From: an uncultured Gammaproteobacteria bacterium
GTDB taxonomy: Bacteria > Patescibacteriota > Microgenomatia > UBA12405
Length of the DNA stretch: 64,000 nucleotides
Direction: 5' to 3'
Assembly (NCBI GenBank): GCA_964448705.1
Contig: CAYUZS010000003.1
Span: forward strand, 73,384 to 137,383
A program made the translations under genes and the position numbers. Under the pieces are notes generated by a model. It saw only the letters and a program-made list of their open reading frames with translations, was not told the origin of the DNA and did not search any database. Shown here piece by piece: positions 3,937-50,461 of the stretch; position 1 is the stretch's first letter, and each line of letters begins with the position of its first letter.

Positions 3937-3938
3937 TT

Positions 3939-10047: not shown

Positions 10048-10063
10048 ATTTTTTTAAATTTTA

Positions 10064-16256: not shown

Positions 16257-16335
16257 TGGTGGGATTAGCTCAATTGGTTAGAGCATCTGCCTGTGGAGCA
16301 GAAGGTTGCCGGTCCAAGTCCGGTATCTCACCCCA
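16257..16335 (+). tRNA. tRNA-His (anticodon GTG) with encoded G-1 and 3' CCA
   Basis: The sequence g|gtgggat tagctcaattggttagagc a tctgc CTGTGGA gcaga aggtt gccgg tccaagt ccggt atctcac c cca forms a cloverleaf. An extra 5' G pairs with the discriminator C, which is a tRNA-His hallmark. Confidence 0.85.
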
Positions 16336-35000: not shown

Positions 35001-36186
35001 TGATTACCAAGAGTCGATCATTTTTTACGGCCTGCCTTTTTTCTTCTTTCTGAATATTATTCCTCAACTTAAAACTTTTCGTCTTTCTCGTTTGTCTGTT
35101 TTTGTTCAAATTACTCTGATTATCCTGTATATTATTTCTGCCATTTTATCTTTCAATCCCGGATATTCCTATTATTCATTTTTTATTTTTCTTACTGTCC
35201 TGTCCATTCTCAACCTCTCTTTCGTTTATATTCAGGATTTTGATATTTTCTACCGATTCATTATCATTTTTTCCTGTTTCTACTCCCTTATTTTTATCCT
35301 TTCCAGGAATGGAATTATTTCCCTACTTCCCAAAATTAGTAATGATAATTTTATTCTCCAAAACTGGGGTCATAGTTACCTGGCTGATTTTCTAATTTTC
35401 CCCATCATTATTCTTATTTCTAAAATTAGTAAAAATAATTTCAAATACTTTCTACCTTTAGTTGTTTTTCTGTCAACTTCTTTAATCCTCACCAATTCCC
35501 GTTCTGTTCTGGTAGCCGTTATTTTGGGAATACTTTTTCTATCCCCCAAAAACAAACTTTATTCGCATTTAAAAGAAGTTACCTTAATTTGTTTAGTCTT
35601 CGGTCTTGTTTATATCTTTCAACACAAAGATCCTACCAGTTATCGTTTCACTTATTGGCAGCAGGCCATCGTCAATTTTCAAGAATCGCCTTTGTGGGGC
35701 AAAGGCCCGGAAACTTTCAATGCTTTTAATACCAGATATGCCCACAATTCCGTTTTGGAATATCTTTCCGGCAATGGTCTTATTTTCACCTTTATTTTTT
35801 GCCTATCCGTTCTCTCGGGTCTTGTCCGCCAATATCGAAAAAATAATCTTCTTTTTTGCCTCGGTCTGGCTGCATTTATTAATTCTCTTCTTGGTTCCTC
35901 TTGGTCCTCTCCGGGAATTCTTGTCATCAGCCTGATATTTTTATTTCATGGCGGTCATCCATCAAATCGATTCAAGCAAAGCCCTGTTTTTTTAACCGTT
36001 TTATCAGTTTTGATTTTCCTTTTCTTTCTCTCTAAAACTTCTTCTGACTATTTTTTTCTCCAAAAGAATTATTCTCTTAGTTTGAAACTCGATCCGTTTA
36101 ATCTCAATTCTCTTTTAATGACTCCCGACTCTCCCAACCTTCAAAGGTTTTATCCCCACCGACAGAAATTTTATTTCGTTCCCTAG
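34915..36186 (+). CDS. O-antigen ligase/polymerase (Wzy)-like polytopic membrane protein
   Basis: It has more than 10 TM helices. The periplasmic loop WGKGPETFNAFNTRYAHNSVLEYL matches the Wzy_C/O-antigen ligase motif. The 5' end overlaps the divergent neighbour, so the start is uncertain. Confidence 0.5.
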   Translation: MIIKTSAKNLSIFIFLSFLLILPIFGKSIDYQESIIFYGLPFFFFLNIIPQLKTFRLSRLSVFVQITLIILYIISAILSFNPGYSYYSFFIFLTVLSILNLSFVYIQDFDIFYRFIIIFSCFYSLIFILSRNGIISLLPKISNDNFILQNWGHSYLADFLIFPIIILISKISKNNFKYFLPLVVFLSTSLILTNSRSVLVAVILGILFLSPKNKLYSHLKEVTLICLVFGLVYIFQHKDPTSYRFTYWQQAIVNFQESPLWGKGPETFNAFNTRYAHNSVLEYLSGNGLIFTFIFCLSVLSGLVRQYRKNNLLFCLGLAAFINSLLGSSWSSPGILVISLIFLFHGGHPSNRFKQSPVFLTVLSVLIFLFFLSKTSSDYFFLQKNYSLSLKLDPFNLNSLLMTPDSPNLQRFYPHRQKFYFVP

Positions 36187-36194
36187 TAAAACAA

Positions 36195-37481
36195 ATGAAG
36201 CTTAAAATCACTTCCCGTAAATCCCAACTCTACCTCTTTGTAATTATCGAAATAATTTTTCTTGTTCTCTGTATTTTTGTTAAAAAACCACTAATTACCA
36301 CCACTCCTTTCGAATATGATGAACCGGATTATGTGGCAAATTCAATCCTTCTGAGCCACTTTCGACAATATCACCCCGACGACATCTATTGGTCCCAAAT
36401 AATTGCTTACGATCAGCCCCATCTGTATCACTATCTCTGTGGTTTGTTTTTGGAAAATACATATCATCAGCCGATTGATCAGATTCTTAAAAATAATGAT
36501 TTATTCAATAGCCCAGGAAATCCGTTTCTGGGCATTGGCAAAAAAGTCGACGGAAAATCTTTGGACGATCCGTTCATCCAAACCCATGAAAAAGCCTTTC
36601 GGGTTATCCTCTCTGCGCGCACTTTATCTTTCATCTTCTATTTCCTAACCGGTACAATTTTAATTTCTATTTTTTATTGCCTGAAAATTATTGGATTCAG
36701 CCCCTTGCTGTTGGTTATTCTTTTATCACCATATGTATTTTCCACCTCTATTTATGCCATTTCAGACGGACTGCTTCTCTTAACAATTTCCCTATCTACT
36801 CTTCTCTCGATTCTTTATCTCCGGTATCCTAAAAAACACTTCCTATTTATAGTTTTACTTGGAATTAGCTGCGGCCTGGCTCTTTCTACCAAGCTCAACG
36901 GCGGCCTGACTATCTTCACCGGACTTTTGGCAATTATAGTCTCAATCAAATCTTCCAAAAACATTAAAATTCATATTCTGGATACATTTATTTTATTAAC
37001 TACATCACTTTCTGTTTTTATTTTTCTGAATCCTTTCCTCTATATCAACACTTTTCAAAATATTATTCATATTTTTCAATACAGAATGTATGTTGGGGAT
37101 ATAAATAGTGTAATGCTTCCCGAAGAAGCCTTACCCGGCAGTTACCTCAACAAATTTATATTTTTTTCAAAAAGGATCTATTCCATAGTTGGTCTTTCCC
37201 CCACCACATCATTTCTTCTTATCATTTTTTCCATTTTTGCATCCCTCTACATTATCTGTTTCTACGCTTTCAATAGAATAAACAGCCTTCACCGCCCCAA
37301 ACTAAATTTACTTCTCAGTTCCCTCCTTACTTTTACTATTGTTTTTCTTTATATCCCCATGGATTGGCAGCGATATTATCTTCCGGCTCTAATTTCTAAT
37401 GTTTTCCTATTAGCCCTTGATCTTTATTTTTTAATAAAAATTTTTGGAAAAAGATTTTTACTAAAAACCATCCGATCCTAA
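36195..37481 (+). CDS. Polytopic membrane protein, possible GT-C-type glycosyltransferase
   Basis: It has many TM helices. Family assignment rests on context only. Confidence 0.3.
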   Translation: MKLKITSRKSQLYLFVIIEIIFLVLCIFVKKPLITTTPFEYDEPDYVANSILLSHFRQYHPDDIYWSQIIAYDQPHLYHYLCGLFLENTYHQPIDQILKNNDLFNSPGNPFLGIGKKVDGKSLDDPFIQTHEKAFRVILSARTLSFIFYFLTGTILISIFYCLKIIGFSPLLLVILLSPYVFSTSIYAISDGLLLLTISLSTLLSILYLRYPKKHFLFIVLLGISCGLALSTKLNGGLTIFTGLLAIIVSIKSSKNIKIHILDTFILLTTSLSVFIFLNPFLYINTFQNIIHIFQYRMYVGDINSVMLPEEALPGSYLNKFIFFSKRIYSIVGLSPTTSFLLIIFSIFASLYIICFYAFNRINSLHRPKLNLLLSSLLTFTIVFLYIPMDWQRYYLPALISNVFLLALDLYFLIKIFGKRFLLKTIRS

Positions 37482-38115
37482 GATACCTTTTTCCCAATCT
37501 TTCTGGCTCCTCTAGCAATCTAAACAGCCATTCACCTCCGTTATTTCTAATCCACTTGGGTGCCTGTCTCTTGTTTCCGCTCAAAAAATCAAACGCCGCC
37601 CCCACTGTCACATAAGTATTGTTAGGAATTTCCCTAAACAGTCTATCCGCCATTTCAATTTGTTTTTTAGCGCCTAAACCAATCCAGACAATCTTTTTGT
37701 TTCTGTCTTTTAACTCCCGAACTATTTTTCGATAATCTTTCTCCTCAAATTTTTCTTTATATGGCATCACCACATATTCCCCAAACTTGGAAAAATAATC
37801 CTTGTTTTTTATATCTCCGATAAATACATTATTTTTCCACCCGCTTTCCAAAACAGCTTTCATCAAATCAGGGCCGTAAACTCTTTCTGCTTTTTTATTT
37901 GTTTTTCTTAAAGCCCAAACCAAAGGCACTCCGTCTGCAGTTAATAAGTTTCCTTTTTCCAATATATTCTTAATATTTTTATCTTTCTCCGCCATCATCA
38001 TCTCATTTAAAGTACAGCAATACACTACCCCCTTGTTCTCAAGCATCCATTCTCTGGTTTCCATTAAACTCAAACTACTTATATCCAACCCTAAAATGTT
38101 AACTTTATTCTTCAC
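37396..38115 (-). CDS. WecB/TagA/CpsF-family glycosyltransferase
   Basis: The family pattern is present: ILGLDISSLSLMETREWM...LLTADGVPLVWA...IGLGAKKQIEMA...GAAFDFLSGNKRQAPKWIRNNGGEWLFRL. Confidence 0.75.
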   Translation of the reverse strand: MKNKVNILGLDISSLSLMETREWMLENKGVVYCCTLNEMMMAEKDKNIKNILEKGNLLTADGVPLVWALRKTNKKAERVYGPDLMKAVLESGWKNNVFIGDIKNKDYFSKFGEYVVMPYKEKFEEKDYRKIVRELKDRNKKIVWIGLGAKKQIEMADRLFREIPNNTYVTVGAAFDFLSGNKRQAPKWIRNNGGEWLFRLLEEPERLGKRYLRIGWFLVKIFFQKFLLKNKDQGLIGKH

Positions 38116-39215
38116 TCTGGAATCAAATTCTTAATTTGTTTTGTAAAAATTGCCTCCGAAAATTTATTCGCCGACTTTCTACACTCGCCTTCACTAATCT
38201 TCAGTCTGTCTAATCTTTTCATGGCCTCAAACAAACCATCTTCCGTATAATTAGAAAACAAAACACCATTCTTTCCATCATCAACAGTTTCTTTAACTCC
38301 ACCGGAGTTATAAGCCACCACTGGAATTCCTGTTTTTAATGCCTCTACCGGCACTATTCCAAAATCCTCATCCTTTGAAGCAAATAACAAAGCTTTGGCC
38401 TGACTCATAATCTCTAGTTTTCTTTTTTCCTCGCAATTTCCAACAAATTTTATCGTTTCTCCGGCTGCCTTTTGAAGTTTTTGACTCTCATCGCCATCCC
38501 CCACCACCACCAATGAAATTTTATTTTTACTGCAGGTTTTCACTGCCAAATCAATTCCCTTTTGTTTTACTAATCGGGAAAGACAAACATAATAATCTTT
38601 TCTCTCGCCGGCTTCCCCAATACTCTTAACTTCCACCGGTGGGTATACTATTTCAGCTTTTCGTCGGTAATATCTTTTAATTCTCTGTTGTACATTTCTG
38701 GAATTTGCAACTACTATATCAGCTCTTTTTGATCCATTTTTATCTATTGCCCTTAATATCTCTTTTATCGGCCAAAATAAATATTTCCAGACTCCTGATC
38801 TTATCCAGTTTATTTCATTGAATTCTTCGTATAAATATCGTGGTGGTGTATGGATATAAGATAAGTGAAAGGCCCCTTTTCTTTTTTTTACATTTTTCGA
38901 CATAAATGAGTGTGATGAAGAAATCACTAGATCATAATCCTGTAAATTTAGAAACTCCCAATAAATCCAAGAAAAAATTTTAATTACTGAAATATATTTA
39001 CTAACTTTATTTTTATGAATCAATCCTTGAAAAACGGAAGTATAAATTCTAATTGCCGGATATTTTTTCTCGATTTTTTGTCTGGCTGCCGGAACTATAA
39101 ACAATGTATAAACATCTGCTTTTGGATAAATTTTCAAAAAACTGTCAATCACTTTTTCAGCCCCGCCAAATTCCATAATTATATCCGATATTATCGCCAC
39201 CTTCTTTTTCTTCAT
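38112..39215 (-). CDS. Glycosyltransferase family 4
   Basis: The C-terminal GT-B motif FASKDEDFGIVPVEALKTGIPVVAYNSGGVKE (E-x7-E) is present. Confidence 0.8.
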   Translation of the reverse strand: MKKKKVAIISDIIMEFGGAEKVIDSFLKIYPKADVYTLFIVPAARQKIEKKYPAIRIYTSVFQGLIHKNKVSKYISVIKIFSWIYWEFLNLQDYDLVISSSHSFMSKNVKKRKGAFHLSYIHTPPRYLYEEFNEINWIRSGVWKYLFWPIKEILRAIDKNGSKRADIVVANSRNVQQRIKRYYRRKAEIVYPPVEVKSIGEAGERKDYYVCLSRLVKQKGIDLAVKTCSKNKISLVVVGDGDESQKLQKAAGETIKFVGNCEEKRKLEIMSQAKALLFASKDEDFGIVPVEALKTGIPVVAYNSGGVKETVDDGKNGVLFSNYTEDGLFEAMKRLDRLKISEGECRKSANKFSEAIFTKQIKNLIPE

Positions 39216-39240
39216 CTTACTAATTATAATCTACTCAGAC

Positions 39241-40323
39241 ATGGAAACCTCTCCAAAAAAAATTTTCGTTGTATTTAATAGTCTAAACATTGGCGGTATC
39301 GAAACTAAAATTGTCGACCTATGTCGCTACTACTCTAAACAAAAAGATATTCAACTCACTCTCCTCCTTAAACAAAAAACCGGTCCTTTAATCTCTAAAA
39401 TACCCCCAAACATTACCATCATTTCCCCGTTAAACTCGTCACCGGTCTATTTTCCTTTATGGTTGTCAATTCAGTTTTTTTATTCTCATCCCCAATTGGT
39501 CGTTTCTTTTGGCAACTATTCTTCAATTTGTACCATTTTCAGCAAACTATTTTTCAACCCCGGCATTAAAGTAATTATCAGTGAAGACTCCAGTATTATT
39601 GAACAAATTGATTCCGACACTTTTCCCGGATTAAGAAGGTTACTGGTCAAAATAACCTATCCTCTGGCCAACCTGATTATTACCCTCACCAAAGCAGGGA
39701 AAAATAAATTAGTAAAACTTGTCCCCAATACAAAAAACAAAACCATTATTCTCAACAACTGGTTACCTCTTAGTTTCAAATCTACGGGCATTTCCAAAAA
39801 AGATATTGATATTTTATATATAGGCCGTTTTGAACCCCAAAAAAACCCTTTAGCCTTCTTAATTATTTCCAAAAATCTGATAAAAACCATTCCCGGGATT
39901 AAAATTGTTATGATTGGACAGGGATCCCTCCGGACAATTATTCAGGAATTTATAATCAAAAATAAATTGGTCAAAAATATTTCCTTACTCCCGGCAACCA
40001 CCCATCCGGAAAAATTCTATCAACGTTCTAAAATCCTCCTCCTCACCTCCCGGCATGAAGGTTTCCCGTTAACCATTCTCGAAGCCATTTCCGGTTACTG
40101 TCTCCCGGTTTGCCGTCAACTCCGGGAATTAGACAATTTTTTTAATTATAAAAAAAAGAGTTTACTATTTAATTCATCTCAATCAGCAATTGATCTGATC
40201 AACCGACTCTTCTCCAGCCCGGAGCTCCGCAAAGACTTGATTCATCATTATTGGAAAAAAGTTATCAAACAGCAAAACCTTAACTTCAATAAAACTTTAA
40301 CAGTTTTTTCTAAGTACCTATGA
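39241..40323 (+). CDS. Glycosyltransferase family 4
   Basis: RHEGFPLTILEAISGYCLPV is a GT4 motif. Confidence 0.75.
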   Translation: METSPKKIFVVFNSLNIGGIETKIVDLCRYYSKQKDIQLTLLLKQKTGPLISKIPPNITIISPLNSSPVYFPLWLSIQFFYSHPQLVVSFGNYSSICTIFSKLFFNPGIKVIISEDSSIIEQIDSDTFPGLRRLLVKITYPLANLIITLTKAGKNKLVKLVPNTKNKTIILNNWLPLSFKSTGISKKDIDILYIGRFEPQKNPLAFLIISKNLIKTIPGIKIVMIGQGSLRTIIQEFIIKNKLVKNISLLPATTHPEKFYQRSKILLLTSRHEGFPLTILEAISGYCLPVCRQLRELDNFFNYKKKSLLFNSSQSAIDLINRLFSSPELRKDLIHHYWKKVIKQQNLNFNKTLTVFSKYL

Positions 40324-41420
40324 AGCCAAAAAAAATAATGATTGTCTTTTTCGATATGGCACTCGGCGGTATTCAAAGAAAGATTCTCGACATCATTAAC
40401 CACCTTCACAACCATTATTCGAATATTCAAATTACCTTATGTTTAATCGAAAAAAAAGGTATTTTTATTGATCGTATTCCAGATTATGTCAAAATAAAAA
40501 AGCCTCCATTTAGAACTCCCATTCTTTACTTACCTTGGTTTACCTTGTGGATTACCAAGGAAATTATCAGTAATAAGCCGGATTATATTTTACCGTTTAT
40601 GGATGTCAGTGCTGTTGCCGTCCTGGCCGCCAAACAACTTCTGTTTTGGAAAAAACCTCTTGTCTGTATCGGTGAAGACATCCTCACTTCAAAATACTTA
40701 CTCACCGAATCACAGCCCGATCTTCGTCGAAAAATGATTCGTTATTTTTATCCAAAATCCGACAAAATTTTAGTTCAAACACCCGTCCAGAAAGCTGATC
40801 TTATCGATATTGTCGGACAAAACATCGCCGACAAAATAATCGTTTCCCCAAATTGGCTGCCTCTGGAATTTCCACCCCAAAAATTACCTCCGCGTTCTGA
40901 TCGCTCAATTGACATTCTTTATCTTGGCCGTTTTGATTCCCAAAAAAACCTTTCTTTATTTATCACCATTATTTCCCAACTTCAGCACAGCATTCCCCGT
41001 CTTAAAGCTGTATTAGTCGGTAGTGGACACGAAACCAGAAAACTCAAGAGGCTTACCAAACATCTGGGACTTTCTAAAAATATCCAATTTTTCCCCGCCA
41101 CCACAGATCCTACCTCTTTCTATACCCAATCTAAAATATTTCTTCTTACCTCAGATTATGAAGGCTTTCCTCTTACCCTTCTGGAAGCCATCTCCTGTGG
41201 TTGCATTCCAATTTCCAGAAATTTATCCGAAATAAAACAATTTTTTAACCAGGATTCCAAGCATTATTTGTTTTCCAATCCCGACGAAGCCGCGGTTCTC
41301 CTCAACTACACTCTCACTCATCCACCCAAACCTTCGTTGAAACTTTATTATCAGCGAATCCTCACACTTCAGAACAAATATCTGCATCTCTATGTTAAAC
41401 ATCTCCTTTTTAAAAAATGA
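40320..41420 (+). CDS. Glycosyltransferase family 4 (paralog of preceding gene)
   Basis: DYEGFPLTLLEAISCGCIPIS is a GT4 motif. The domain order matches the 39241-40323 gene. Confidence 0.75.
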   Translation: MKPKKIMIVFFDMALGGIQRKILDIINHLHNHYSNIQITLCLIEKKGIFIDRIPDYVKIKKPPFRTPILYLPWFTLWITKEIISNKPDYILPFMDVSAVAVLAAKQLLFWKKPLVCIGEDILTSKYLLTESQPDLRRKMIRYFYPKSDKILVQTPVQKADLIDIVGQNIADKIIVSPNWLPLEFPPQKLPPRSDRSIDILYLGRFDSQKNLSLFITIISQLQHSIPRLKAVLVGSGHETRKLKRLTKHLGLSKNIQFFPATTDPTSFYTQSKIFLLTSDYEGFPLTLLEAISCGCIPISRNLSEIKQFFNQDSKHYLFSNPDEAAVLLNYTLTHPPKPSLKLYYQRILTLQNKYLHLYVKHLLFKK

Positions 41421-43297
41421 AGTTATCTTCATCGCTCACAGTCGCAGTTATCACCTGTCGTCGTCCCAAACTTCTTAAACGTTGTCTTTTTAGTTTTTTA
41501 AAACAAAAAACTGCTTTAAGAATTATTATTATTGACAACGATTATCAACAGACTTCAAAAAAAATTTGTCAATCATTCTCAAAAAAGCTGTCTTTAAAAT
41601 ACTTGGTCTGTCCGATAAAAAGTATCCCCAGGGCAAGAAGTTTAGCCATTGAATCCTGTGAAACTAATTATTTGGCTTTTATCGACGACGATTGCTGTAT
41701 CGATCGTCACTGGTCAGAAATTGCCCGGGAACTCATTTCCGCCAATCCAAACACCGCCTATTGGCAGGGACAAACTTATCCTCCCGCCAAACCTTCCTTG
41801 CTTGATTCTGCCCATTTCCAAATCTATTCCCAATGGCTGCTTCATCCCCACCAGGGATTGGATACAAAAAATATCATTATTAATTTATCTGTGGTCAAAA
41901 AATATCATCTTTCTTTTGACCCCAACTTTCCAATCTTTGAGGATATAGATTTTGGCCTTCAACTGAATCAGCATCATCTTTCCGGAATGTTTATCCCTAA
42001 ATTAATAGTCAGCCACCATGAATATATAAAATTGTTCCCATTAATCCGAAAATATTTTTATCGCGGTCAAATCAAATTTGCTATCAATCAAAAATGGGGC
42101 AATTTTGATAACTATCAGCCTACTCTCGACTTCTTTACCATCATTAAAAAATTAGCTACCAACTTTTTCAAAGCACTTCTGGAAATTTCATTTGACTCTG
42201 GTTTCAAATATGCCCAAAAGTATCAGATTCTTCCCAACGACAACCATCTTTCTATAATAAATCGCCATGACCGGGGAGCCAACCAAGAACGCCTTGAAGC
42301 CATAACTAATTTTCTCCACAAAAACAATTTTCAGGTAACCAATATTGATTCGGAAAAAATTCTTCTCGATTGCCAATTGCATCGACGTCAGTTCTTAAAA
42401 GAAAATCCCCTAGCCTACCTATTAATTCATTTATCTCTACTTAATAATCCACCTTTCAGATATTTTTTTAGCCTACTTCTTCGCGGTTATCTTCTCAATT
42501 TTTATCTTCATCGTTTGCATACCAAAAAAGTAATTTCTCAATATTCCGAAGACATTTTTGTCGCCATATATCCACACCGCTTTCAACTTATCCTTGATTT
42601 ACCGACCATTTTTTCTGAAGAATTAAAACTCAGTCACCGGCTGCCTCTACCGATTATTAATATAATAACCCGTCTGGAAAACCTCGCCTATTCCAAAGCC
42701 GATCATACTTGCTTCCATTGGTCCGGCTTTCTTAATTATGCACGTAAAATTGGAAAAAAAATTCCAAACAGTTTTATCCTCAACTGGGGGTGTAATTCAG
42801 TTTCAAAAGTAGCTGTATTTAAAAAACATCCCAAAATAATTTATCTTGGCGATTTTACTTCACCTTGGACCAATCCCTCATTACTACTCAGACTGCAGAA
42901 AACATCTTCTATCGACATTTTTAGCTATCAAACTTCATCCAAATTTAAAACCAAAGGCTATTTAAAAAATCTCCAAAAACTCAGCCTTTATCAATTTGGT
43001 CTAATAACTATCACCAATGATCCGCTCAGAAACAATGGTTTTTCTGCCAAGTACTTAAAATATCTTGAGCATGGTCTACCGGTTCTTTGCCCTGAATGGC
43101 GTCGGGATCCCCTGCTAAAACCAGCCACCATTTACTATAATGAAAGAAATTTTGTCAAACAGCTTAAAAAATATTCTCAAAAAAAACTTTGGTTAAAAAA
43201 ACACCAAGCTGCCCTAAGAATTTCCAAAAATTTAAATTGGAACAAAACTCTACTTCCATTGTTACCGAAAATTAATTCATCTAAAAATGAATATTAG
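41417..43297 (+). CDS. Glycosyltransferase family 2 with large C-terminal extension of unknown function
   Basis: The N-terminus (VAVITCRRPKLLKRCL...IIIDND...AFIDDDC) is a GT-A fold with a DxD motif. The ~350-aa C-terminal region is unassigned. Confidence 0.6.
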   Translation: MKLSSSLTVAVITCRRPKLLKRCLFSFLKQKTALRIIIIDNDYQQTSKKICQSFSKKLSLKYLVCPIKSIPRARSLAIESCETNYLAFIDDDCCIDRHWSEIARELISANPNTAYWQGQTYPPAKPSLLDSAHFQIYSQWLLHPHQGLDTKNIIINLSVVKKYHLSFDPNFPIFEDIDFGLQLNQHHLSGMFIPKLIVSHHEYIKLFPLIRKYFYRGQIKFAINQKWGNFDNYQPTLDFFTIIKKLATNFFKALLEISFDSGFKYAQKYQILPNDNHLSIINRHDRGANQERLEAITNFLHKNNFQVTNIDSEKILLDCQLHRRQFLKENPLAYLLIHLSLLNNPPFRYFFSLLLRGYLLNFYLHRLHTKKVISQYSEDIFVAIYPHRFQLILDLPTIFSEELKLSHRLPLPIINIITRLENLAYSKADHTCFHWSGFLNYARKIGKKIPNSFILNWGCNSVSKVAVFKKHPKIIYLGDFTSPWTNPSLLLRLQKTSSIDIFSYQTSSKFKTKGYLKNLQKLSLYQFGLITITNDPLRNNGFSAKYLKYLEHGLPVLCPEWRRDPLLKPATIYYNERNFVKQLKKYSQKKLWLKKHQAALRISKNLNWNKTLLPLLPKINSSKNEY

Positions 43298-44360
43298 TAA
43301 AAAAATTAAATCAACCGGAATCAATCTCTCCATTTGGTGGCAGAATCTTTTAATAAAAGTCTCTCTCAATCTTAATAAACCTCTAAACAAACCTACTTCC
43401 ATTACTTTTGACCTAACTCCAAATTGTGTTCTAAAATGCAAGCAATGCGATATTTGGAAAAGTCCTCCAGAAACACAACTCTCACTAAAAGAAGCTAAAA
43501 TTATCATTGACCGGCTTCACTCTTGGTTAGGTAGTTGCTACCTCTTTTTTACCGGCGGTGAACCGTTAACAAACACAGACCTACCCGAAATAATTGGTTA
43601 TGCCTACAGAAAAGGCATCCTTTCTCACATCAACAGTAATGCCGTCCTGATAGACAAGTCACTGGCAAAAAAACTCACTCTAAACCACCTTTATGCTATT
43701 TCCATCTCTCTTGATGGGGCTACAGCCAAAACTCACGATTATCTCCGTGGTGTTTCAGGAACATTCGATAAAGTCATCAAAGCTATTAATTATCTTCAAA
43801 AAACAACTCATTCTCCTAAAATTTACATCAATACAGTCATAATGAAAAATAACACTATGGAATTAGAAAAATTAATAGAACTAACCAAAAAATACCACAC
43901 TAACGGCATTATGTTTCAATGTTTACTTCCCAATCTCGGACAAAACAGTGTCAAAGCTATTTCCAAAAACAATCCTTTATGGCCAAACAAAACTAAAATT
44001 ACAGCCGTTATAAAAAGGATTATCCAAAAAACCTCTTCTGAACCTCTTATTCTAAGTTCCAAACAGGATTTGGAAACCTCTCTGAAATATTATAAAAATC
44101 CCGGACTATTTAATAAATTTGTCTGTGCCGCCGGAATAAATAATTTTATTGTTGATCATCATGGAGACGTTAGGCTTTGTTTCGACTTTCCTGCTATCGG
44201 AAATATTATCAGGGAAAACCCCCAATCTATCTGGTGGAGCCAAAAAGCTGTTACCCAGCGTCAACAAATCCGCCACTGTCAACGAAATTGCAAGCTTATT
44301 GCCTGTAACAAAGCTGATACTGCCAGAAATAAAACTGTCGCTGCTAATCTTTTTGAATAA
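43287..44360 (+). CDS. Radical SAM enzyme with C-terminal SPASM/twitch-like Cys cluster
   Basis: CVLKCKQCDIW is the CxxxCxxC motif and GGEPL is a SAM-binding motif. The C-terminal Cys-rich segment reads CAAG...C...CQRNCKLIAC. Confidence 0.7.
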   Translation: MNISKKIKSTGINLSIWWQNLLIKVSLNLNKPLNKPTSITFDLTPNCVLKCKQCDIWKSPPETQLSLKEAKIIIDRLHSWLGSCYLFFTGGEPLTNTDLPEIIGYAYRKGILSHINSNAVLIDKSLAKKLTLNHLYAISISLDGATAKTHDYLRGVSGTFDKVIKAINYLQKTTHSPKIYINTVIMKNNTMELEKLIELTKKYHTNGIMFQCLLPNLGQNSVKAISKNNPLWPNKTKITAVIKRIIQKTSSEPLILSSKQDLETSLKYYKNPGLFNKFVCAAGINNFIVDHHGDVRLCFDFPAIGNIIRENPQSIWWSQKAVTQRQQIRHCQRNCKLIACNKADTARNKTVAANLFE

Positions 44361-45015
44361 TTCCTACTCCCGGATCCTCTAATATCTCGAATAGTTTGTA
44401 TTTTCCTGAGTCTTTAATTTCTTTCCAAAATTTTCTGGTTCCATAAAAGTTTCCATCCTTGTCCGGACTTCCGATATCATGGATCGCCAAAAATCCGCCT
44501 TTTTCCACATTCTGCCAGAACATTTCAAAATCTTTTTTCACCCCTGTATAAGAATGGTCGCCGTCAATATGAACGTAACCATATTTTATTTTTTCATTTT
44601 TTGCGTAATATTCATCTGATTTCATCACCCTCAATTTTATATACTTCTCCAAACCAAATTTTCCAAAATGTTTTTTTTCATCTACCTTCTTCCAAAAACC
44701 AACTCCTCCCCAATGTTCTCCAGCAACTTTATCATAATCATCCATATCAAATCCGGCATCAACAAAATCAACTAAACCCATCCCGTTATCTTTGCACGCC
44801 AAAGCGCATACGGCCGGAATATATCCGTATTTACTGCCAACACATAGTACCTTATCCGGTCTGATTTGCCTAATCAGTGAATAATGGATCCAGCCATAAC
44901 CTAAACCTCCCCGATTGTTATCCCAGTGATGCCAATTGTCATCTTTTGCATAATTCTCAATAAATTTCCTGACATTTTTCTTATCTATTAAATCTTTTGT
45001 CCCGCTGAATATCAT
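44344..45015 (-). CDS. Class I SAM-dependent methyltransferase (TylF/CmcI-like)
   Basis: VLCVGSKYG and the C-terminal YVHIDGDHSYTGVKKDFEMF...GGFLAIHD fit a macrocin-O-MTase-like fold. Confidence 0.55.
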   Translation of the reverse strand: MIFSGTKDLIDKKNVRKFIENYAKDDNWHHWDNNRGGLGYGWIHYSLIRQIRPDKVLCVGSKYGYIPAVCALACKDNGMGLVDFVDAGFDMDDYDKVAGEHWGGVGFWKKVDEKKHFGKFGLEKYIKLRVMKSDEYYAKNEKIKYGYVHIDGDHSYTGVKKDFEMFWQNVEKGGFLAIHDIGSPDKDGNFYGTRKFWKEIKDSGKYKLFEILEDPGVGIIQKD

Positions 45016-45041
45016 TCTCCATTATAATACTATCATTCTCT

Positions 45042-46196
45042 ATGCTTTCAACCTTCTTCAAATCATCTCCATCCAAACCAATCGACTTTTCTTTTTTTCC
45101 CTCCTTAAATCAAAATCTTTTTATCCATTCCACCCCTTTTTTTCTAACAAATAAATCAATTGTAAAAAATCGTTTACTAGAACTGCATCAAACAATGTCT
45201 CAATTTCACCTGGCTCAGGCAAAAATTGCCTACTCATTCAAAACCAATTACGACGTCGCCAAAAATATCAGATTTGACATGGCTGAAGTTGTTTCTCAAA
45301 GAGAATTAAAAATGTCACTCCATAATCACTACCATTATTCACAAATTATTTTTAATGGACCAAACAAAGGCAATTTTCTTCCACTTTTGTACCGTCCAAT
45401 CACTCTCAACCTTGACCATTTTTCTGAAATTGAAAATCTTCCTCCATACTCCTCAAAAATAACCGCTAAAATTGGTCTCCGTTTTAACTCACTCTCCTCA
45501 CCTAGTCGTTTTGGCTTCAATCTTGAAAACGGCCAAGCCAGCCAAGCATTTTCTCTTTTAAAACAGAAAAAATACCCCCTTTCCGGAATCCACTTTCATC
45601 TTGGCAGCGATATTCAAAACTCTGACCTCTATCAGCAATGTTCTCTGGCCATTTCTTCCTTCATCAAAAAACACCATCTCTTTGCTGACCTTGTTTATAT
45701 CGACTTTGGTGGTGGTTTTCCCTCACACGGTTTAATCCACCAAACCGACATCCAATCTTTACCAAAGATATCGAATTATATTAATAGTATCGTTCAACCA
45801 CTGTCCAAAATTGTTGATTTTTCTAAGACAGAAATTATTCTGGAACCCGGTAGATATTTAGTCGACGACTCAACTGTCATGATAACCAAAGTTCTTAGCA
45901 CTATTGAAACTAGTAACCATCAGTTAATTACTGTCGATGCTGCAAACACTATGTTGCCCTCAACATGGTATCGACGCCATCTAATCAAAAATTTATCTGC
46001 GAATAATAACTTTAAAACTATAGAAACAATTATTTATGGCAGCAGCTGCCAGGAAACAGACATTTTATATCGCGGAAAATTCCAAAAGGTTTCTATTGGA
46101 GACCTTCTTGTTTTTTATTGTGTTGGTGCCTACAATCAAAGTCAAACTTCTTCGTTTATTTTTAATAAACCCAAAACCTATTTTATATATGACTAA
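45042..46196 (+). CDS. Fold-type III PLP-dependent decarboxylase (DAP/Orn decarboxylase-like)
   Basis: AYSFKTNY (Lys-containing), GIHFHLGSD, EPGRYLV and YGSSCQETD match family conserved boxes. The likely start is an internal Met near 45194. Confidence 0.55.
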   Translation: MLSTFFKSSPSKPIDFSFFPSLNQNLFIHSTPFFLTNKSIVKNRLLELHQTMSQFHLAQAKIAYSFKTNYDVAKNIRFDMAEVVSQRELKMSLHNHYHYSQIIFNGPNKGNFLPLLYRPITLNLDHFSEIENLPPYSSKITAKIGLRFNSLSSPSRFGFNLENGQASQAFSLLKQKKYPLSGIHFHLGSDIQNSDLYQQCSLAISSFIKKHHLFADLVYIDFGGGFPSHGLIHQTDIQSLPKISNYINSIVQPLSKIVDFSKTEIILEPGRYLVDDSTVMITKVLSTIETSNHQLITVDAANTMLPSTWYRRHLIKNLSANNNFKTIETIIYGSSCQETDILYRGKFQKVSIGDLLVFYCVGAYNQSQTSSFIFNKPKTYFIYD

Positions 46197-46950
46197 AAGA
46201 TTTAATCACCACTATTTTACCCTCCTCTCTGTTATGACCAAAACAGAGTTTATGAGCCGTTACAAAAGGGCTATTTTTGGTTTTCTATGGTTGTTTCTTA
46301 ACCCACTCTTTCAAATGCTAATCATCGGTACTGTCTTCTCTCACTTTATTAGTCTTCCAAACTACTATTTGTTCCTCTTTGGAGGTCTCCTTTTATGGCA
46401 GTTCTTTTCCTCCTCAATCACCAAATCAACCTATAGCTTTGTTTCTAACCGAAATCTGCTTCAAAAAACTCCTTTTCCTTTAGAAATAATCCCTATCTCT
46501 ATTATTCTTGCTGATTATATTAATCTACTCTTTTCCCTTCTGCTTTTTCTAACGACCACCGCCTTTGTAACTGGTCTCTCCTTAAAAGCTCTCTTGATTA
46601 TTCCCATTCTGCTATGGCTGCTGACTTTCTCAGTTGCTTTCTCCTTAATCACTTCTACTCTTAATGTTCGTTTCCGCGATACCAACTTTTTTGTTAACAC
46701 TCTTCTCATGCTTTGGTTTTATGCCACTCCCATCCTCTATCAAACCAACAGTCTACCTGGGTTTCTACAAAAATATCTGATTATCAATCCTTTGGCTTCA
46801 CTTTTCTCCCTATTTCATTATATTTTCTTTAATGCTCCTTTTCCAAACACTATTCTTATAATCACTAATCTTTTTACCACCATTGTAATCTTATTTTTAG
46901 GTATTTTTCTTTTCCGAAAAAATTACTCCTATTTTGTTGATTGGTTATAA
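46189..46950 (+). CDS. ABC-2-type transporter permease (Wzm/TagG-like polysaccharide exporter)
   Basis: The N-terminal EFMSRYKRAIFGFLWLFLNPL sequence is followed by 6 TM helices. The start is re-set to the Met at 46189; the ORF track started at 46036. Confidence 0.7.
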   Translation: MTKRFNHHYFTLLSVMTKTEFMSRYKRAIFGFLWLFLNPLFQMLIIGTVFSHFISLPNYYLFLFGGLLLWQFFSSSITKSTYSFVSNRNLLQKTPFPLEIIPISIILADYINLLFSLLLFLTTTAFVTGLSLKALLIIPILLWLLTFSVAFSLITSTLNVRFRDTNFFVNTLLMLWFYATPILYQTNSLPGFLQKYLIINPLASLFSLFHYIFFNAPFPNTILIITNLFTTIVILFLGIFLFRKNYSYFVDWL

Positions 46951-47956
46951 AACTATGTCAAAAGTTATTAAAATAAAACATTTATCCAAAAAATATTCTC
47001 TTCATTCTTCAAAACCCACTTTGATTGAACAGTTAAACCCAAAAGATAAAATTTACTGGGCTCTTAAAGACATTAACCTTACTGTAGAATCCGGAGAACG
47101 TGTCGGTTTTTTTGGTCCAAACGGTGCTGGTAAAACTACTCTACTCAAAATAATTTCCCACATTACCACTCCTGCTTCAGGAACAGTCACCACTAGTGGA
47201 AAAATAATTTCTCTAATTGAATTAACCGCTGGTTTTGACCAAGAGCTTACCGGTTATGAAAATATCAAACTTCAATTGGCACTTATGGCCGATTTCAATC
47301 AGGACCAAACCTCTCAGGTTATTTCAGACTGTATAAATTTTTCGGAACTATCAGATTTTATTCATCAACCGCTTTATACCTATTCCTCCGGTATGATTCT
47401 TCGTCTGGCTTTTTCGATTGCAACAGTCATTCCTGCTGATATTTTCATCGTTGACGAATTTTTGGCAGTTGGGGACACCGAATTTAAAAGTAAATGTGCC
47501 GAATATTTCAATCAACTTAAACTAAGTCATAAGACTATTCTTGCCTCCTCTCACGATCTTCAATGGCTGATTTCTTTTTGTGATAAGGTATACCCTATCA
47601 ATCATGGTCGCCTTGATCGGGAAAATTTTGTCACCCCCCAACATCTGGAATTCTTTCGGCGATCCCTCCAAAAAAACAGTTCTTCTGTCACGGTTACTAC
47701 CGGCAGTATGCTACCAACTCTTAATATTGGTCAGGTTGTTCCAATTAAAAATATCTCTTTCTCTAAAATAAAACCCGGCGACATTATTGCCTTCATGTTT
47801 ACCAATTTTCCTCAACCTATTGTTCATCGGGTAATCGCCATTGGCATCAACAACCGCCAACCTATTTTAGTTACCAAAGGAGACGCCCACAGCCAACCGG
47901 ACTCCTGGATGGTCACCAAAAAAGAATATCTTGGAATTATTCAATTTAATCACTAA
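46934..47956 (+). CDS. ABC transporter ATP-binding protein (Wzt/TagH-like) fused to C-terminal S26 signal-peptidase-like domain
   Basis: The Walker A motif GPNGAGKTT, the signature YSSGMILRL, the Walker B motif IFIVDEF and the H-loop SSHD are present. The C-terminal ~110 aa carry GSMLPTL (SPase box B Ser), GDIIAF, HRVIA (His in place of the catalytic Lys, as in ER/archaeal-type SPases) and KGDAHSQPDS (box E-like). Confidence 0.65.
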   Translation: MLIGYKTMSKVIKIKHLSKKYSLHSSKPTLIEQLNPKDKIYWALKDINLTVESGERVGFFGPNGAGKTTLLKIISHITTPASGTVTTSGKIISLIELTAGFDQELTGYENIKLQLALMADFNQDQTSQVISDCINFSELSDFIHQPLYTYSSGMILRLAFSIATVIPADIFIVDEFLAVGDTEFKSKCAEYFNQLKLSHKTILASSHDLQWLISFCDKVYPINHGRLDRENFVTPQHLEFFRRSLQKNSSSVTVTTGSMLPTLNIGQVVPIKNISFSKIKPGDIIAFMFTNFPQPIVHRVIAIGINNRQPILVTKGDAHSQPDSWMVTKKEYLGIIQFNH

Positions 47957-48914
47957 GTCTGTCCTTTATTTTCACATACATTGTCTCCCAAAACTCGCCT
48001 AACTTTTCAGCACTTTTCCTTATTCCTAGCCGAAGTTTCATCTCTGGAAATATCTTTTCAGTCATTTTTTCTTTCTTCCGTGAAATTTTCATTCTTTCAA
48101 AAACATCCGCCCTTTGTTTACAGGAAGAACATACCCCGCAAGGATACTTGTTTCCATTTGTACAGCTCCAAGTCTTTTCCAAAGGCAGACAATATTTTTT
48201 TCCCATTTCTACCACCTCTTCTTTTTCCATCCAGTTTCCAAACTGAGGCTCAAAAAATAGTGAATAATATTCAAAATTGGTATCGTCTCCAATCTCCCGA
48301 ATCAAATCTTGATATAACCTAATTCGGCTTAATGTCTGGCCTTTTATGGTTAACCCGTCAGTCGGTAATATCGCGGTTAAAATTGTCTTTACGGTTATAT
48401 CGTACCGGTATTTCAAATAAAAAGAATATTGTAATGCATAAATTGGGTATTGATAGAGAATATCCGGCAATAACCAAAACGACATCTTATTATTTACTAC
48501 TTGTGACAATAAATATTTATGATGAAAAAATTTTCCTGGTTTAATCATCCTGTATTCTTCCAAAATATTAGCAGGATAGGTATAAACATCCATTTCTTTT
48601 ACCGGCCAACTTAAACCCGGATATTTTTTTTGAAAATATTTATCAAAAAATTTCACCGATCTAGTGCTACCATTAAGGTTACCTCTCGTATATTTCTGTC
48701 TAATATAAACCGGATACACTTTTGTTCCATTACAAAGTAGATATTCCCATAACACAGTCGAGTCGATGCCTCCGGAAACCAACAGTATCGCCTCGTCCAA
48801 ATTCAAGTAATCTTTTAAGTTTCTATTTATTTCACTTTTATCAACTTTTTCAATCGGATTATCTTTTAACCTCTTTCGAAATTCACTTGAAGAAATCCTT
48901 GCTATTTGATTCAT
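47946..48914 (-). CDS. QueC-like PP-loop ATP pyrophosphatase (7-cyano-7-deazaguanine synthase family)
   Basis: The SGGIDS PP-loop is present. The C-terminal TWSCTNGNKYPCGVCSSCKQR matches the QueC Zn-binding CxxC..C tail. No other que genes were seen in the window. Confidence 0.55.
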   Translation of the reverse strand: MNQIARISSSEFRKRLKDNPIEKVDKSEINRNLKDYLNLDEAILLVSGGIDSTVLWEYLLCNGTKVYPVYIRQKYTRGNLNGSTRSVKFFDKYFQKKYPGLSWPVKEMDVYTYPANILEEYRMIKPGKFFHHKYLLSQVVNNKMSFWLLPDILYQYPIYALQYSFYLKYRYDITVKTILTAILPTDGLTIKGQTLSRIRLYQDLIREIGDDTNFEYYSLFFEPQFGNWMEKEEVVEMGKKYCLPLEKTWSCTNGNKYPCGVCSSCKQRADVFERMKISRKKEKMTEKIFPEMKLRLGIRKSAEKLGEFWETMYVKIKDRLSD

Positions 48915-49186
48915 TTTTCTTCTCTAATTATCCCAGTTTTAATACCTTTTTTCAAAAAAGACTTCACATCTTCCCTCGCCTCATCTTTTTCCACCTTATA
49001 GTGTTTATATAAAAAACTAACCATTTCTTCGATACTTTTTGGACTAACCAACAACTTCCATAAATCCACTGCCGTCCCTGAAAGAATCGTAATTCTCGAC
49101 TCACCTTCCACCGCAATCAACACCTCATCATTTCGATACTCGGAATAACATTTCTCCACCTTAACAAAAACATCCCTATCTCTCAT
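48911..49186 (-). CDS. PqqD-like peptide-binding protein (RiPP recognition element)
   Basis: The 91-aa protein has TAVDLWKLL...SIEEMVSFLYKHYKVEKDEAREDVKSFLKKGIKTGII, which fits the PqqD-family pattern (winged-helix RRE). A strong RBS (AAAGGATGGG) precedes it. Confidence 0.6.
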   Translation of the reverse strand: MRDRDVFVKVEKCYSEYRNDEVLIAVEGESRITILSGTAVDLWKLLVSPKSIEEMVSFLYKHYKVEKDEAREDVKSFLKKGIKTGIIREEK

Positions 49187-49201
49187 GTTTTCCCATCCTT
49201 T

Positions 49202-49309
49202 TTATCTCGCACAAGCACAGGACGCACAGACACATGATCCATCGGGACACTGTTTGGGTGTTTCTCCACCACATGCCAAAACAGAATTTAAAGAAATCAC
49301 TTTAATCAT
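49202..49309 (-). CDS. Unannotated 35-aa Cys-rich small peptide MIKVISLNSVLACGGETPKQCPDGSCVCASCACAR (candidate RiPP precursor)
   Basis: I found this by manual translation of the minus strand. It is absent from the ORF track because it is under 60 aa. It has six Cys in the C-terminal 23 residues after a hydrophobic leader-like N-terminus. It ends 15 nt upstream of the PqqD-like gene start. Confidence 0.4.
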   Translation of the reverse strand: MIKVISLNSVLACGGETPKQCPDGSCVCASCACAR

Positions 49310-49396
49310 CGGTTTTTGATAATCATTCCTATTTTGTTGCACCATAAAATAAATATACAAAAACCTTATCTTAAATGCAAATACCAGTTCTAATTT

Positions 49397-50461
49397 CTAT
49401 TTTACTAGTCTCATCACATCTCCCACAGTTATCAACACAATCAATAGCAGCAAAACCATCATTCCCACATTGTTTACCGCCATCTCCAGCTTTTGATTAG
49501 CTCTTTTTCTGGTAATCATTTCATAAAGTACAAAAATTATTCTTCCTCCGTCCAAAGCCGGAAAAGGCAGAACATTTACAATTGCCAAATTAACCGACAC
49601 TATTCCAAAAAAGTGAATCACCGCCAGCATCCCTTGGTTGGCTTTTATACTGCTGGTTGCTTCAAACATTCCAATCGGACCGGAAACATCTTTAGGCACC
49701 TGCCCTTGAAACAATCCACCGACCATCGACATTACTCCTCCGAAAATAATTTTGCCCCAATAATAGGCTTCCTTAAATCCGGCTCCGATCCCTTTGTAAA
49801 ACTCATACCATTTCACTTTCATCATTTCCGTATTGGAAATCGCCACCCCCAAACTCCCCTCACCTTCAGGAGGATTATCCCGCACTTGTACTTGTACGGA
49901 TAGGGCATTGCCCTGTCCCTCCCTAGAAATCTCCAATTCCACCTCTTTTCCTTTGTATTTCCCCACTTCTTCGGTTAATTGTTGTGGTGTTTCTATTTCC
50001 ACACCACCGACCTTTTTTACCTGGTCATCAACTTTTAATCCGGCAATTTCCGCCGGAGAATTCTTAGCCACTTCCAAAATTTTAACTTTATTTGTCTCTG
50101 TCGGTACTCCCAACACCGAATAAACGATTGAAAAAATTACCACCGCTGTCACCAAGTTCATCAGCACTCCTCCCAAAACTATCAGGGCTTTTTGCCACGG
50201 ATTTTTTGCTGCAAATGAATTTTTGTTTTTTGTCGCTCCTTTTTCGTTCAGATCCTCTCCGAACAACTTGCAAAATCCGCCGATCGGCAGCCAGTTTAAA
50301 CTCCATTCTGTTCCTTTCCACTTTTTAGCCTTTATTCTCGGTGGTAGTCCCAATCCAAACTCTTCCACTTTTACTCCTGTCAGCTTAGCTGCAAAAAAAT
50401 GGCCGAATTCATGAACCAAAACTAAAATCGACAATGCCACTACAAAAATAATGATATCCAT
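49397..50461 (-). CDS. rseP: RIP metalloprotease RseP (site-2 protease, M50) with PDZ domain
   Basis: The HExxH motif VHEFGHFFAAK is within the first TM. A PDZ domain and a C-terminal LDGG motif region are present. Confidence 0.85.
   Translation of the reverse strand: MDIIIFVVALSILVLVHEFGHFFAAKLTGVKVEEFGLGLPPRIKAKKWKGTEWSLNWLPIGGFCKLFGEDLNEKGATKNKNSFAAKNPWQKALIVLGGVLMNLVTAVVIFSIVYSVLGVPTETNKVKILEVAKNSPAEIAGLKVDDQVKKVGGVEIETPQQLTEEVGKYKGKEVELEISREGQGNALSVQVQVRDNPPEGEGSLGVAISNTEMMKVKWYEFYKGIGAGFKEAYYWGKIIFGGVMSMVGGLFQGQVPKDVSGPIGMFEATSSIKANQGMLAVIHFFGIVSVNLAIVNVLPFPALDGGRIIFVLYEMITRKRANQKLEMAVNNVGMMVLLLLIVLITVGDVMRLVK

Follow-up and report, generated by a model that had tools for sequence, protein, structure and literature searches.

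Within a 64,000-nucleotide stretch of DNA from an uncultured bacterium of the Patescibacteriota (assembly GCA_964448705.1, contig CAYUZS010000003.1; the whole stretch is called the window below), a small group of genes encodes a cysteine-rich peptide, a PqqD-family protein and an ATPase related to the queuosine biosynthesis enzyme QueC, beside an ATP-binding cassette (ABC) exporter that carries a peptidase domain. We believe, with a probability of roughly 60%, that this locus exemplifies an undescribed cassette of the Patescibacteria for the modification and export of peptides, guided by the recognition element (RRE) known from peptides that are made by the ribosome and modified after translation (RiPPs). 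The parts can be tied to one another because they co-occur across rearranged loci and are joined by gene fusions, and the system is real, conserved and apparently undescribed. On this last point the original prediction, made from the letters of the window alone, has held up, given that full-text literature searches returned no paper pairing QueC-family enzymes with PqqD proteins or RREs. Likewise, NCBIfam (June 2026) contains no model for the QueC-like enzyme or for the peptides. The central features of the window are as follows.

49202-49345, minus strand: precursor peptide gene, 47 amino acids (aa), MVQQNRNDYQKPMIKVISLNSVLACGGETPKQCPDGSCVCASCACAR
49304-49321, minus strand: codons of the YxxPx[LIV] leader motif (Y-Q-K-P-M-I), a putative RRE-binding site
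49205-49273, minus strand: six-cysteine C-terminal extension CGGETPKQCPDGSCVCASCACAR, pattern CPDGxCxCxxCAC
48911-49186, minus strand: PqqD-family RRE, 91 aa (PF05402)
47946-48914, minus strand: QueC-family PP-loop ATPase with zinc ribbon, 322 aa (PF06508)
46955-47956, plus strand: TagH/Wzt-like ABC ATPase ending in an S26B peptidase domain (ABC_tran and Peptidase_S26)
47666-47953, plus strand: the S26 peptidase domain itself (Sec11/SipW/archaeal type) with GSMLPTL, VHR and TKGD (TIGR02228)
46189-46950, plus strand: ABC-2 permease, Wzm/RfbD-like (PF01061)

Read along the minus strand from 50461 to 47946, the order is rseP, the cysteine-rich small open reading frame (ORF), the PqqD-like ORF and the QueC-like ORF. 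The PqqD-like start lies 15 nucleotides (nt) past the stop of the peptide gene and is preceded by the ribosome-binding-site motif AAAGGA, and the PqqD-like and QueC-like ORFs overlap by the 4 nt ATGA, all of which is in the sequence as originally described. The gene for the ABC ATPase with its S26 domain converges on the QueC-like gene, and the two share 11 nt. According to an independent gene caller, this ATPase has 333 aa (ATG 46955) and the permease 253 aa (start 46189), and the starts of the mechanically derived ORFs (TTG 46934 for the ATPase, ATG 46036 for the permease) are probably too far upstream.

The relatives of this locus carry much of the argument. A word-indexed homologue search recovered only five relatives of the QueC-like protein, whereas HMMER, run exhaustively over 1.84 billion representatives (clusters at 50% identity), raised the family to at least 216 representatives at the family threshold of E <= 1e-30. 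Among the 150 matches listed, all span most of the profile, and the proteins fall into size classes of approximately 300-340 aa and 400-445 aa. The family belongs to the Patescibacteria, specifically to the Microgenomates and Pacebacteria groups, with a few metagenome-assembled genomes labelled otherwise. PF06508 matches every one of the 64 members scanned, 17 of which carry a PqqD domain fused to the C-terminus, and one further member (P0014, 447 aa) has an S24/S26 peptidase domain in place of PqqD.

We compared 26 independent loci, namely the window, L001, L009, L011-L029, L094, L095, L097 and L098, among which both gene order and orientation vary. The QueC-like protein of the closest relative, L009, is 42% identical to that of the window. 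A PqqD gene is adjacent or fused in nearly all of these loci, an ABC ATPase with an ABC-2 permease stands beside the cassette in 19, and the ATPase bears the S26 domain in at least 12. Where the ATPase lacks this domain, a stand-alone S24/S26 gene is found instead (L026, L094), and in L001 it is an NTP_transf_5 protein that bears the S26 domain. The same locus also has two paralogues of the QueC-PqqD fusion (1583-2818 and 6988-8235), an HprK-like ScmC protein and a FAD_binding_4 oxidoreductase. Three kinds of fusion therefore tie the parts of the cassette together (QueC-PqqD, QueC-S26 and ABC-S26), and these fusions, with conservation across rearranged loci, bear out the earlier suggestion that the fused ATPase and peptidase belong to the system. 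When the S26 domain by itself served as the query, the ABC-S26 fusions were not retrieved.

Judged from their sequences, the peptides are real and more than chance ORFs, because a hidden Markov model (HMM) of the leader finds them in 25 of the 26 loci and because synonymous changes are in excess. Specifically, this model was run over 4866 small ORFs and gave one match beside the PqqD or QueC-like genes in each of the 25 loci, with E values of 1e-10 to 2e-5 for most peptides (3e-8 for that of the window) compared with values above 0.9 for unrelated ORFs. The peptides of L001, L094 and L097 have weaker scores, with the motif still present. In all loci but L021, the small ORF lies no more than about 200 nt from the PqqD or QueC-like gene, mostly just upstream of PqqD, and about 14 of 24 peptide genes have a Shine-Dalgarno-like motif 7-16 nt upstream. 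The peptide genes of L016 and L017 differ by 12 synonymous and 6 non-synonymous codons in a total of 29 codons. The peptide, the PqqD protein and the QueC-like protein form the conserved functional unit that had been proposed, and this unit has no tie to queuosine metabolism.

The peptide of the window had been introduced as a 35-aa product encoded at 49202-49309. The ORF has stood and the start has not, since the proposed ATG at 49309 encodes a methionine inside the conserved Y-Q-K-P-M-I motif. The true start is upstream, and the precursor is 47 aa long. On the identical contig, the independent gene caller reports a 47-aa product corresponding to window positions 49202-49345, and exactly this sequence is present in the protein collection (in Logan gene calls only, not in NCBI), from which the 35-aa version is absent. 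The L009 peptide MKKFKTAKSVSESLLKVYVSPQLRVIKLDSMLAACETSQKTCPDGYCTCKTCACPL, encoded directly upstream of the L009 PqqD gene, aligns without gaps to ...NDYQKPMIKVISLNSVLACGGETPKQCPDGSCVCASCACAR of the window, and the likeness reaches upstream of the methionine of the 35-aa version. An alternative in-frame TTG at 49360, which would yield 52 aa, is also possible.

A common layout runs through these peptides: a basic N-terminus, then Y-x-x-P-x-[LIV], then a beta-strand-like [KR]-[IV]-x-[IV] stretch. Examples are MKKQLKKYVKPELKKNKVKINFAFAASK (L017), MKKYNKPVLKKAKVKISIAAVEMN (L023), MKNTKKTYIKPSIRKIKVVATAAIAE (L013), MKEYKTPKDKRITLKVILAIAE (L098) and ...RGRYSSPSLEVKKLSKIVTLTSY (L028). The motif, as YxxPx[LIV/other], can be aligned in the peptides of all 25 loci. 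The leaders of lasso peptide precursors conserve YxxPxL at positions -17 to -12, and this motif is recognized by the B1 RRE (PMC10368454). The leader-like character first noticed in the window peptide is thus retained, although its nature is that of a lasso-type YxxPx[LIV] recognition motif and goes beyond hydrophobicity. With the tyrosine of the motif counted as position 1, the C-terminus falls at position 17-23 in 22 of 25 peptides, at position 25 in L097, and at position 39 in the window and L009. Position 16, which corresponds to the lasso -2 position, is alanine in 12 of the first 24 peptides, and positions 16 and 18 are mostly small residues, in keeping with what S26 peptidases prefer at -3/-1. 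At the C-terminal end the residues vary (E, Y, K, I, S and others), although all peptides of the QueC-PqqD fusion subfamily (L001, L025, L027, L028) end in tyrosine (..TDY, ..MGY, ..TSY). No aspartate or glutamate at all occurs in the peptides of L018 and L026.

The presumed partner of this motif is the PqqD-like protein, which passes the PF05402 model as had been anticipated (E 3e-11, 43.9 bits, cutoff 23.4). In NCBIfam it comes closest to lasso_PqqD_Bac, with 36 bits where the cutoff is 80, and a lasso PqqD model (NF033536/NF033530) is the best curated match for all 11 of the PqqDs compared.

In QueC, a carboxylate is adenylated and then attacked by ammonia. The QueC-like protein of the window has the PP-loop LLVSGGIDS and a C-terminal PLEKTWSC...CGVCSSCKQR, whose zinc motif (C251, C259, C262, C265) is invariant in the 64 members. 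Its earlier assignment to the QueC family holds for PF06508 (52.5 bits, cutoff 22) and fails for the TIGR00364 equivalog model (44.3 bits, cutoff 150.3), in which just the C-terminal 41 residues are matched. When the 64-member profile was aligned by hhalign to a genuine Prochlorococcus QueC encoded beside queE (L050), the probability was 99.2%, with the PP-loop and the PLEKTWSC...CGxCxxCxxR region in register and with DYGQRH, VPGRN and YPDC lacking a conserved counterpart. Mutagenesis has shown that the motifs YxQxHxxE, VPxRN and YPDC are essential for preQ0 formation (PMC13329287).

These comparisons indicate that the protein is not a preQ0 synthase and represents a separate clade that has lost the motifs for binding 7-deazaguanine, because its score is below the cutoff, the substrate motifs are absent and no que genes are nearby. 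We give almost no credence to ordinary queuosine biosynthesis, with a QueC that makes preQ0 and a small ORF present by chance, even though the Pfam match, SGGIDS and the zinc-binding cysteines would suit it. Besides the shortfall in score and motifs, the length of the protein exceeds that of QueC by about 100 aa, and the peptide and PqqD are conserved or fused. Moreover, none of queD, queE, queF or tgt is present among the annotated neighbours in the 26 loci, whereas the genuine queC of the L050 control adjoins queE.

An AlphaFold model of the protein (predicted local distance difference test score, pLDDT, 77; predicted template modelling score, pTM, 0.76) points in a related direction. The top Foldseek match is Cap9 (9nto_B, E 5.5e-8, target-normalised template modelling score 0.73), followed by QueC, and Cap9 is also the only sequence match in the PDB. 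The substrate pocket is remodelled, and the model shows two additions, an inserted stretch of about 40 aa at residues 112-151 and a long helix at the C-terminus. In Cap9 and QatC, the QueC mechanism operates with a protein N-terminal amine attacking the carboxylate activated by AMP (PMC13329287). The same 2026 survey of PF06508 distinguishes clusters of QueC, QatC, Cap9, LarE, PfkB-linked proteins, WbpG-like amidotransferases, GMP synthase and small archaeal proteins, and it names no PqqD, peptides, RiPPs or ABC transporters (PMC13329287). Assignment to its cluster 5, the WbpG-like sugar amidotransferases, was considered and rejected since no model of that family is among the NCBIfam matches at E <= 0.1.

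Given this likeness to Cap9, the enzyme might ligate 7-carboxy-7-deazaguanine (CDG) to an amine of the peptide, possibly as an anti-phage function. Not only is Cap9 the nearest solved structure, in fold and in sequence, but the QueC model of PADLOC also matches (62 bits), and QueC-family enzymes are known to modify protein N-termini. However, the motifs that contact deazaguanine and are retained in Cap9 (PMC13329287) are absent here, and no que genes are seen in any locus. Furthermore, the N-termini of the peptides vary in length and sequence, and the Pfam and PADLOC scans reveal no CD-NTase, Cap10/TGT, QatA, QatB or QatD nearby and no other defence model. We therefore regard deazaguanylation as very improbable. 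A defence system as such was rejected because PADLOC returns the generic QueC model only.

The remaining conserved component is the exporter with its peptidase. The S26 domain matches the signal peptidase I model TIGR02228 at 70.3 bits (cutoff 51.85), and the SxSMxP, VHR and KGD boxes are kept in all ABC-S26 fusions and in the QueC-S26 fusion of P0014. This domain directly follows the ABC nucleotide-binding domain, and because no hydrophobic segment lies between them it is predicted to be cytoplasmic, unlike the signal peptidases that are anchored in the membrane and act outside the cytoplasm.

Additional genes of the window accompany the cassette with varying constancy.

45042-46196, plus strand: pyridoxal phosphate (PLP)-dependent decarboxylase of the ornithine/diaminopimelate/arginine (Orn/DAP/Arg) family, a conserved accessory gene
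44344-45015, minus strand: Methyltransf_24 methyltransferase, dependent on S-adenosylmethionine (SAM), a conserved accessory gene
43287-44360, plus strand: radical SAM/SPASM enzyme (Radical_SAM and SPASM Pfam matches), an occasional accessory whose link to the peptide is putative
49397-50461, minus strand: rseP (TIGR00054, 239 bits)

Methyltransf_24 recurs in 11 of the 26 loci and a PLP decarboxylase in nine; neither gene figured in the original prediction. The slot of the decarboxylase is filled by the Orn/DAP/Arg type in the window, L014 (5938-7134) and L098 (3469-4797), and by the group II type in L016-L020 and L095. The presence of two non-homologous families in one slot by Methyltransf_24 looks like non-orthologous displacement. 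The type of decarboxylase does not correlate with the last residue of the peptide. On the other side of the cassette, rseP was considered as a member of the system and rejected, since it is a neighbour in no locus other than the window and so cannot serve as the anchor that it first seemed to be.

We also note that genes of toxin-antitoxin or abortive-infection type (AbiEii, YafQ, HicA, MazE, Fic) flank the cassette in L001, L094 and L097. Further away in the window, adjacent genes of the minus strand at 29004-30415 encode a protein with purple-acid-phosphatase-N/fn3-like and dockerin-like parts and a cohesin-domain protein. At the gathering threshold of Rfam, the sole matches in the window are two tRNA genes (12920-13003 and 16259-16332, plus strand).

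The radical SAM enzyme and the cysteine-rich tail were central to the original prediction, which saw a six-cysteine core like those of the SCIFF (six cysteines in forty-five residues) peptides and ranthipeptides and took the enzyme to be its maturase. On this explanation, the enzyme at 43287-44360 would mature the peptide with PqqD as the RRE, and the QueC-like protein would perform a secondary tailoring step. The six cysteines in the pattern CPDGxCxCxxCAC are conserved in L009, with five of the six in register, and the SPASM radical SAM gene is 4.8 kb away and recurs near the cassette in L029 and L098. The explanation also draws on the 6.2-kb contig L096, on which a small ORF at 5907-6026 (plus strand), MSAKQYVKPEITSYSAEDLLSLELACGTCCGGPCCPKND, has a YxxPxI leader (YVKPEI) and a cysteine-rich tail and has as its neighbours, at 1039-1377 and 3757-5022, genes for a radical SAM enzyme and for an S24/S26 peptidase that stands alone, named here in no particular order. 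No QueC-like gene is found on this contig, and the arrangement suggests that a YxxP leader with a cysteine-rich core may exist outside the QueC-like cassette.

However, the radical SAM enzyme is absent from 23 of the 26 loci, the peptides of L098 are free of cysteine, and that of L029 has a single one. In the window the enzyme is encoded on the opposite strand inside a block of glycosyltransferase genes, and it falls below the cutoff of every curated maturase family. As for the peptide, the extension is missing from the other 23, and 22 of the 25 peptides are cysteine-poor. Neither the 35-aa nor the 47-aa version, nor the L009 peptide, matches any NCBIfam model at E <= 0.01-0.1. A SCIFF or ranthipeptide precursor was accordingly rejected on the grounds that no model matches and that the tail occurs in two loci only, and we find maturation of the window peptide in this manner improbable. 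The tail may add a second, lineage-specific function, such as metal binding or thioether formation.

Returning to an RRE-guided cassette, we infer a pathway in which an amide bond would be formed near the C-terminus of the peptide at the expense of ATP, followed by cleavage by the S26 domain and export. The RRE would bind the YxxP motif and hand the peptide to the QueC-like enzyme, which, like QueC, Cap9 and QatC, might adenylate a carboxylate for attack by an amine to give an amide. The site of reaction would be at or near the C-terminus of the peptide, at a fixed distance from the motif held by the RRE, because nearly all of the peptides end at a set distance from this motif. Some peptides have no aspartate or glutamate, so that only the alpha-carboxylate is shared by all of them and would have to be the one used, should the carboxylate come from the peptide. 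Candidate nucleophiles are ammonia, the product of the decarboxylase, or a new N-terminus made by cleavage. PLP decarboxylases need substrates with a free alpha-amino acid group, and for this reason a free amine, possibly methylated by Methyltransf_24, would be a plausible nucleophile. The S26 domain would then cut at a site of small residues (Leu-Ala at Y+14/+15, with Y+15 and Y+17 both small), after which the cleaved product would leave through the ABC-2 pump. In the window, this product would carry in addition a six-cysteine tail of 21-23 residues, possibly an extension that binds metal or forms thioethers.

Several observations weigh against such a cassette. In L021, the QueC-like gene (7836-8801) adjoins Bac_transf, ABC-2 and ABC ATPase genes, the ATPase being without an S26 domain, and this is the sole locus with neither a PqqD gene nor a YxxP peptide nearby. 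The 11 PqqDs score 28-39 bits where the lasso cutoffs are 70-80, and the confidence of the structural model is low over residues 112-151. The window peptide gene lacks a good Shine-Dalgarno sequence. A promoter-like -35/-10 pair ends 7 nt ahead of the ATG of the 47-aa version, which would make the mRNA leaderless, but promoter-like matches are no commoner than in shuffled sequence, and a terminator scan likewise gave nothing above shuffle. Most loci leave a 'core' of 0-5 residues past the predicted cut, which is odd for a classical RiPP, and we infer the reaction, its site and its nucleophile alike. Moreover, the exporter subunits best match the TagH/Wzt and Wzm exporters of glycopolymers, well below the curated cutoffs (for the permease of the window, NF050109 at 74 bits), and the cassette is found among glycan genes in at least 12 loci. 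In L026, for example, genes for Wzy_C, S24, the QueC-like protein, the peptide, PqqD, WecG and DUF4330 follow each other on one strand (5438-10876), with stops and starts overlapping such that the cassette is translationally coupled to Wzy_C and WecG. Given so regular a setting in glycan clusters, the true substrate or partner may be a glycan.

It is therefore appropriate to consider that the peptide works together with the RRE and the QueC-like enzyme in the assembly or export of a surface glycan, with no free peptide as product. For example, the C-terminus of the peptide could be ligated to the amine of a lipid-linked glycan, and the S26 domain, in the slot of the carbohydrate-binding domain of Wzt, could clip the peptide at export. 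The original prediction had overlooked both the glycopolymer-type exporter and the glycan setting, which in the window is a cluster at 34353-47956 with Bac_transf, Wzy_C, a PMT-like GT-C protein, WecG and four glycosyltransferases (GT1, GT2). No second exporter was seen in this cluster. The overlapping operon of L026, the overlap of the PqqD gene with Bac_transf in L001 and the kinship of the exporter with TagH/Wzt and Wzm all speak for a role in glycopolymer export, and peptides that end so soon after the predicted cut would suit a 'handle' better than a bioactive core. However, ABC-2 transporters also export peptides or confer immunity to them, and the QueC-PqqD fusion loci L025, L027 and L028 have no adjacent ABC transporter. 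In addition, the association might be exaggerated by synteny between small genomes that are related, and we know of no precedent for a ribosomal peptide that is conjugated to a glycopolymer or gates its export. On balance, we consider a role in glycopolymer assembly or export possible but unlikely.

A more specific form of this idea is that Patescibacteria use peptide-gated export of a glycopolymer, or decorate a cell-wall polymer with ribosomally templated peptides, with the peptide acting as a handle. An RRE-guided QueC-like ligase would join the C-terminal carboxylate to the amine of a lipid-linked glycopolymer, or to an amine substituent derived by the decarboxylase. The S26 domain would then recognize and clip the leader at export, leaving on the glycan a stub of 1-5 residues or, in the window, the six-cysteine peptide. 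We offer this as a speculative and rather doubtful proposal.

If the locus does belong to a cassette for RRE-guided peptide modification and export, the QueC-family PP-loop ATPase would be a new class-defining enzyme for RRE-dependent peptide maturation, and the QueC scaffold would have been recruited for the modification of polypeptides for a third independent time, after Cap9 and QatC. A lasso-type pair of leader and RRE has here been re-used with a protease and an ATPase of non-homologous kinds, and the S26 domain on an ABC-2 ATPase is a new kind of peptidase-ABC fusion. Patescibacteria are thought to be poor in secondary metabolism, and this system is among their few candidate specialized peptide pathways. 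Its constant setting in glycopolymer clusters hints that in these episymbionts ribosomal peptides are in some way connected with the cell envelope. Furthermore, a system of 3-4 genes and a peptide of 20-50 aa is small enough to be amenable to heterologous expression.

Among known systems, lasso peptide biosynthesis offers the most extensive parallels. Both systems have a YxxPx[LIV] leader and a PqqD-family RRE (here best matching the lasso B1 chaperone), and the logic proposed here matches that of lasso biosynthesis, in which the RRE works with a leader protease, with a PP-loop ATPase for amide formation by way of an adenylated carboxylate, and with an ABC exporter. Further resemblances are the alanine at Y+15, in the lasso -2 position, the HprK-like ScmC and NTP_transf_5 proteins of L001 and L094, and a sulfotransferase in L095. 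However, an S26 Ser/His peptidase and a QueC-family enzyme replace the transglutaminase-like B2 protein and the asparagine-synthetase-like cyclase, neither of which is present among the Pfam-annotated neighbours in the window, L001, L009, L011, L012, L094, L095, L097 and L098. The exporter is of the ABC-2 (Wzm/Wzt-like) and not of the McjD type. With 0-5 residues past the equivalent of the lasso cut, most of the peptides cannot form a ring of 7-9 residues with a tail. No lasso core of about 13 or more residues with an aspartate or glutamate at position 7-9 was found, and in the window and L009 the conserved aspartate would occupy position 10 or 11 of the core. The lack of B2 and C genes and the shortness of the cores led us to reject a true lasso cluster.

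Cap9 of type IV CBASS (cyclic-oligonucleotide-based anti-phage signalling systems) and QatC of the QatABCD system share the QueC fold, the SGGxDS PP-loop and the zinc ribbon with the enzyme described here, and it has two further points in common with QatC, namely remodelled active-site motifs and a length greater than that of QueC. The partner, however, is a PqqD RRE with a peptide of 20-50 aa in place of a CD-NTase or QatB. Cap10/TGT, QatA and QatD are all missing, and the context is not a defence island. The loss of the CDG-binding motifs suggests that the substrate carboxylate is probably not CDG. The M(G/S)G(G/S)GG acceptor of Cap9 and QatC is absent from the peptides, whose N-termini are lysine-rich and variable in length.

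A different parallel is provided by the peptidase-containing ABC transporters (PCATs), in which a cytoplasmic peptidase of leader type is likewise fused to an ABC subunit encoded beside the precursor, which suggests that cleavage is coupled to export. The peptidase here belongs to S26B (Ser/His) rather than to the C39 cysteine proteases, and it occupies the C-terminus of a separate ABC-2 ATPase, whereas that of PCATs lies at the N-terminus of a type IV half-transporter. The site of cleavage is likely to consist of small residues (AxA-like) instead of a double glycine. Consistent with these differences, the ABC-S26 protein of the window matches only ABC_tran and Peptidase_S26 in Pfam, with no C39 domain, and the peptides have no GG or GA at a conserved position.

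The pathways for PQQ and mycofactocin resemble the cassette in having a short precursor, a PqqD RRE and chemistry on the last residues, and the peptides of the fusion subfamily end in tyrosine. In the cassette, however, it is a PP-loop ATPase that is conserved and not a radical SAM enzyme of the PqqE/MftC type, and the last residues are not conserved. Finally, Wzm/Wzt and TagGH are the best curated matches of both exporter subunits, which are encoded among Bac_transf, WecG/TagA, Wzy_C and glycosyltransferase genes, although the scores are far below the equivalog cutoffs and an S26 peptidase stands in place of the carbohydrate-binding module. The logic of the proposed pathway is therefore familiar, with RRE-guided modification, a leader protease and an exporter, whereas its parts are unfamiliar: an ATPase of the QueC family, an ABC-2 ATPase that bears a cytoplasmic S26 domain, and micro-peptides in which hardly any core is left.

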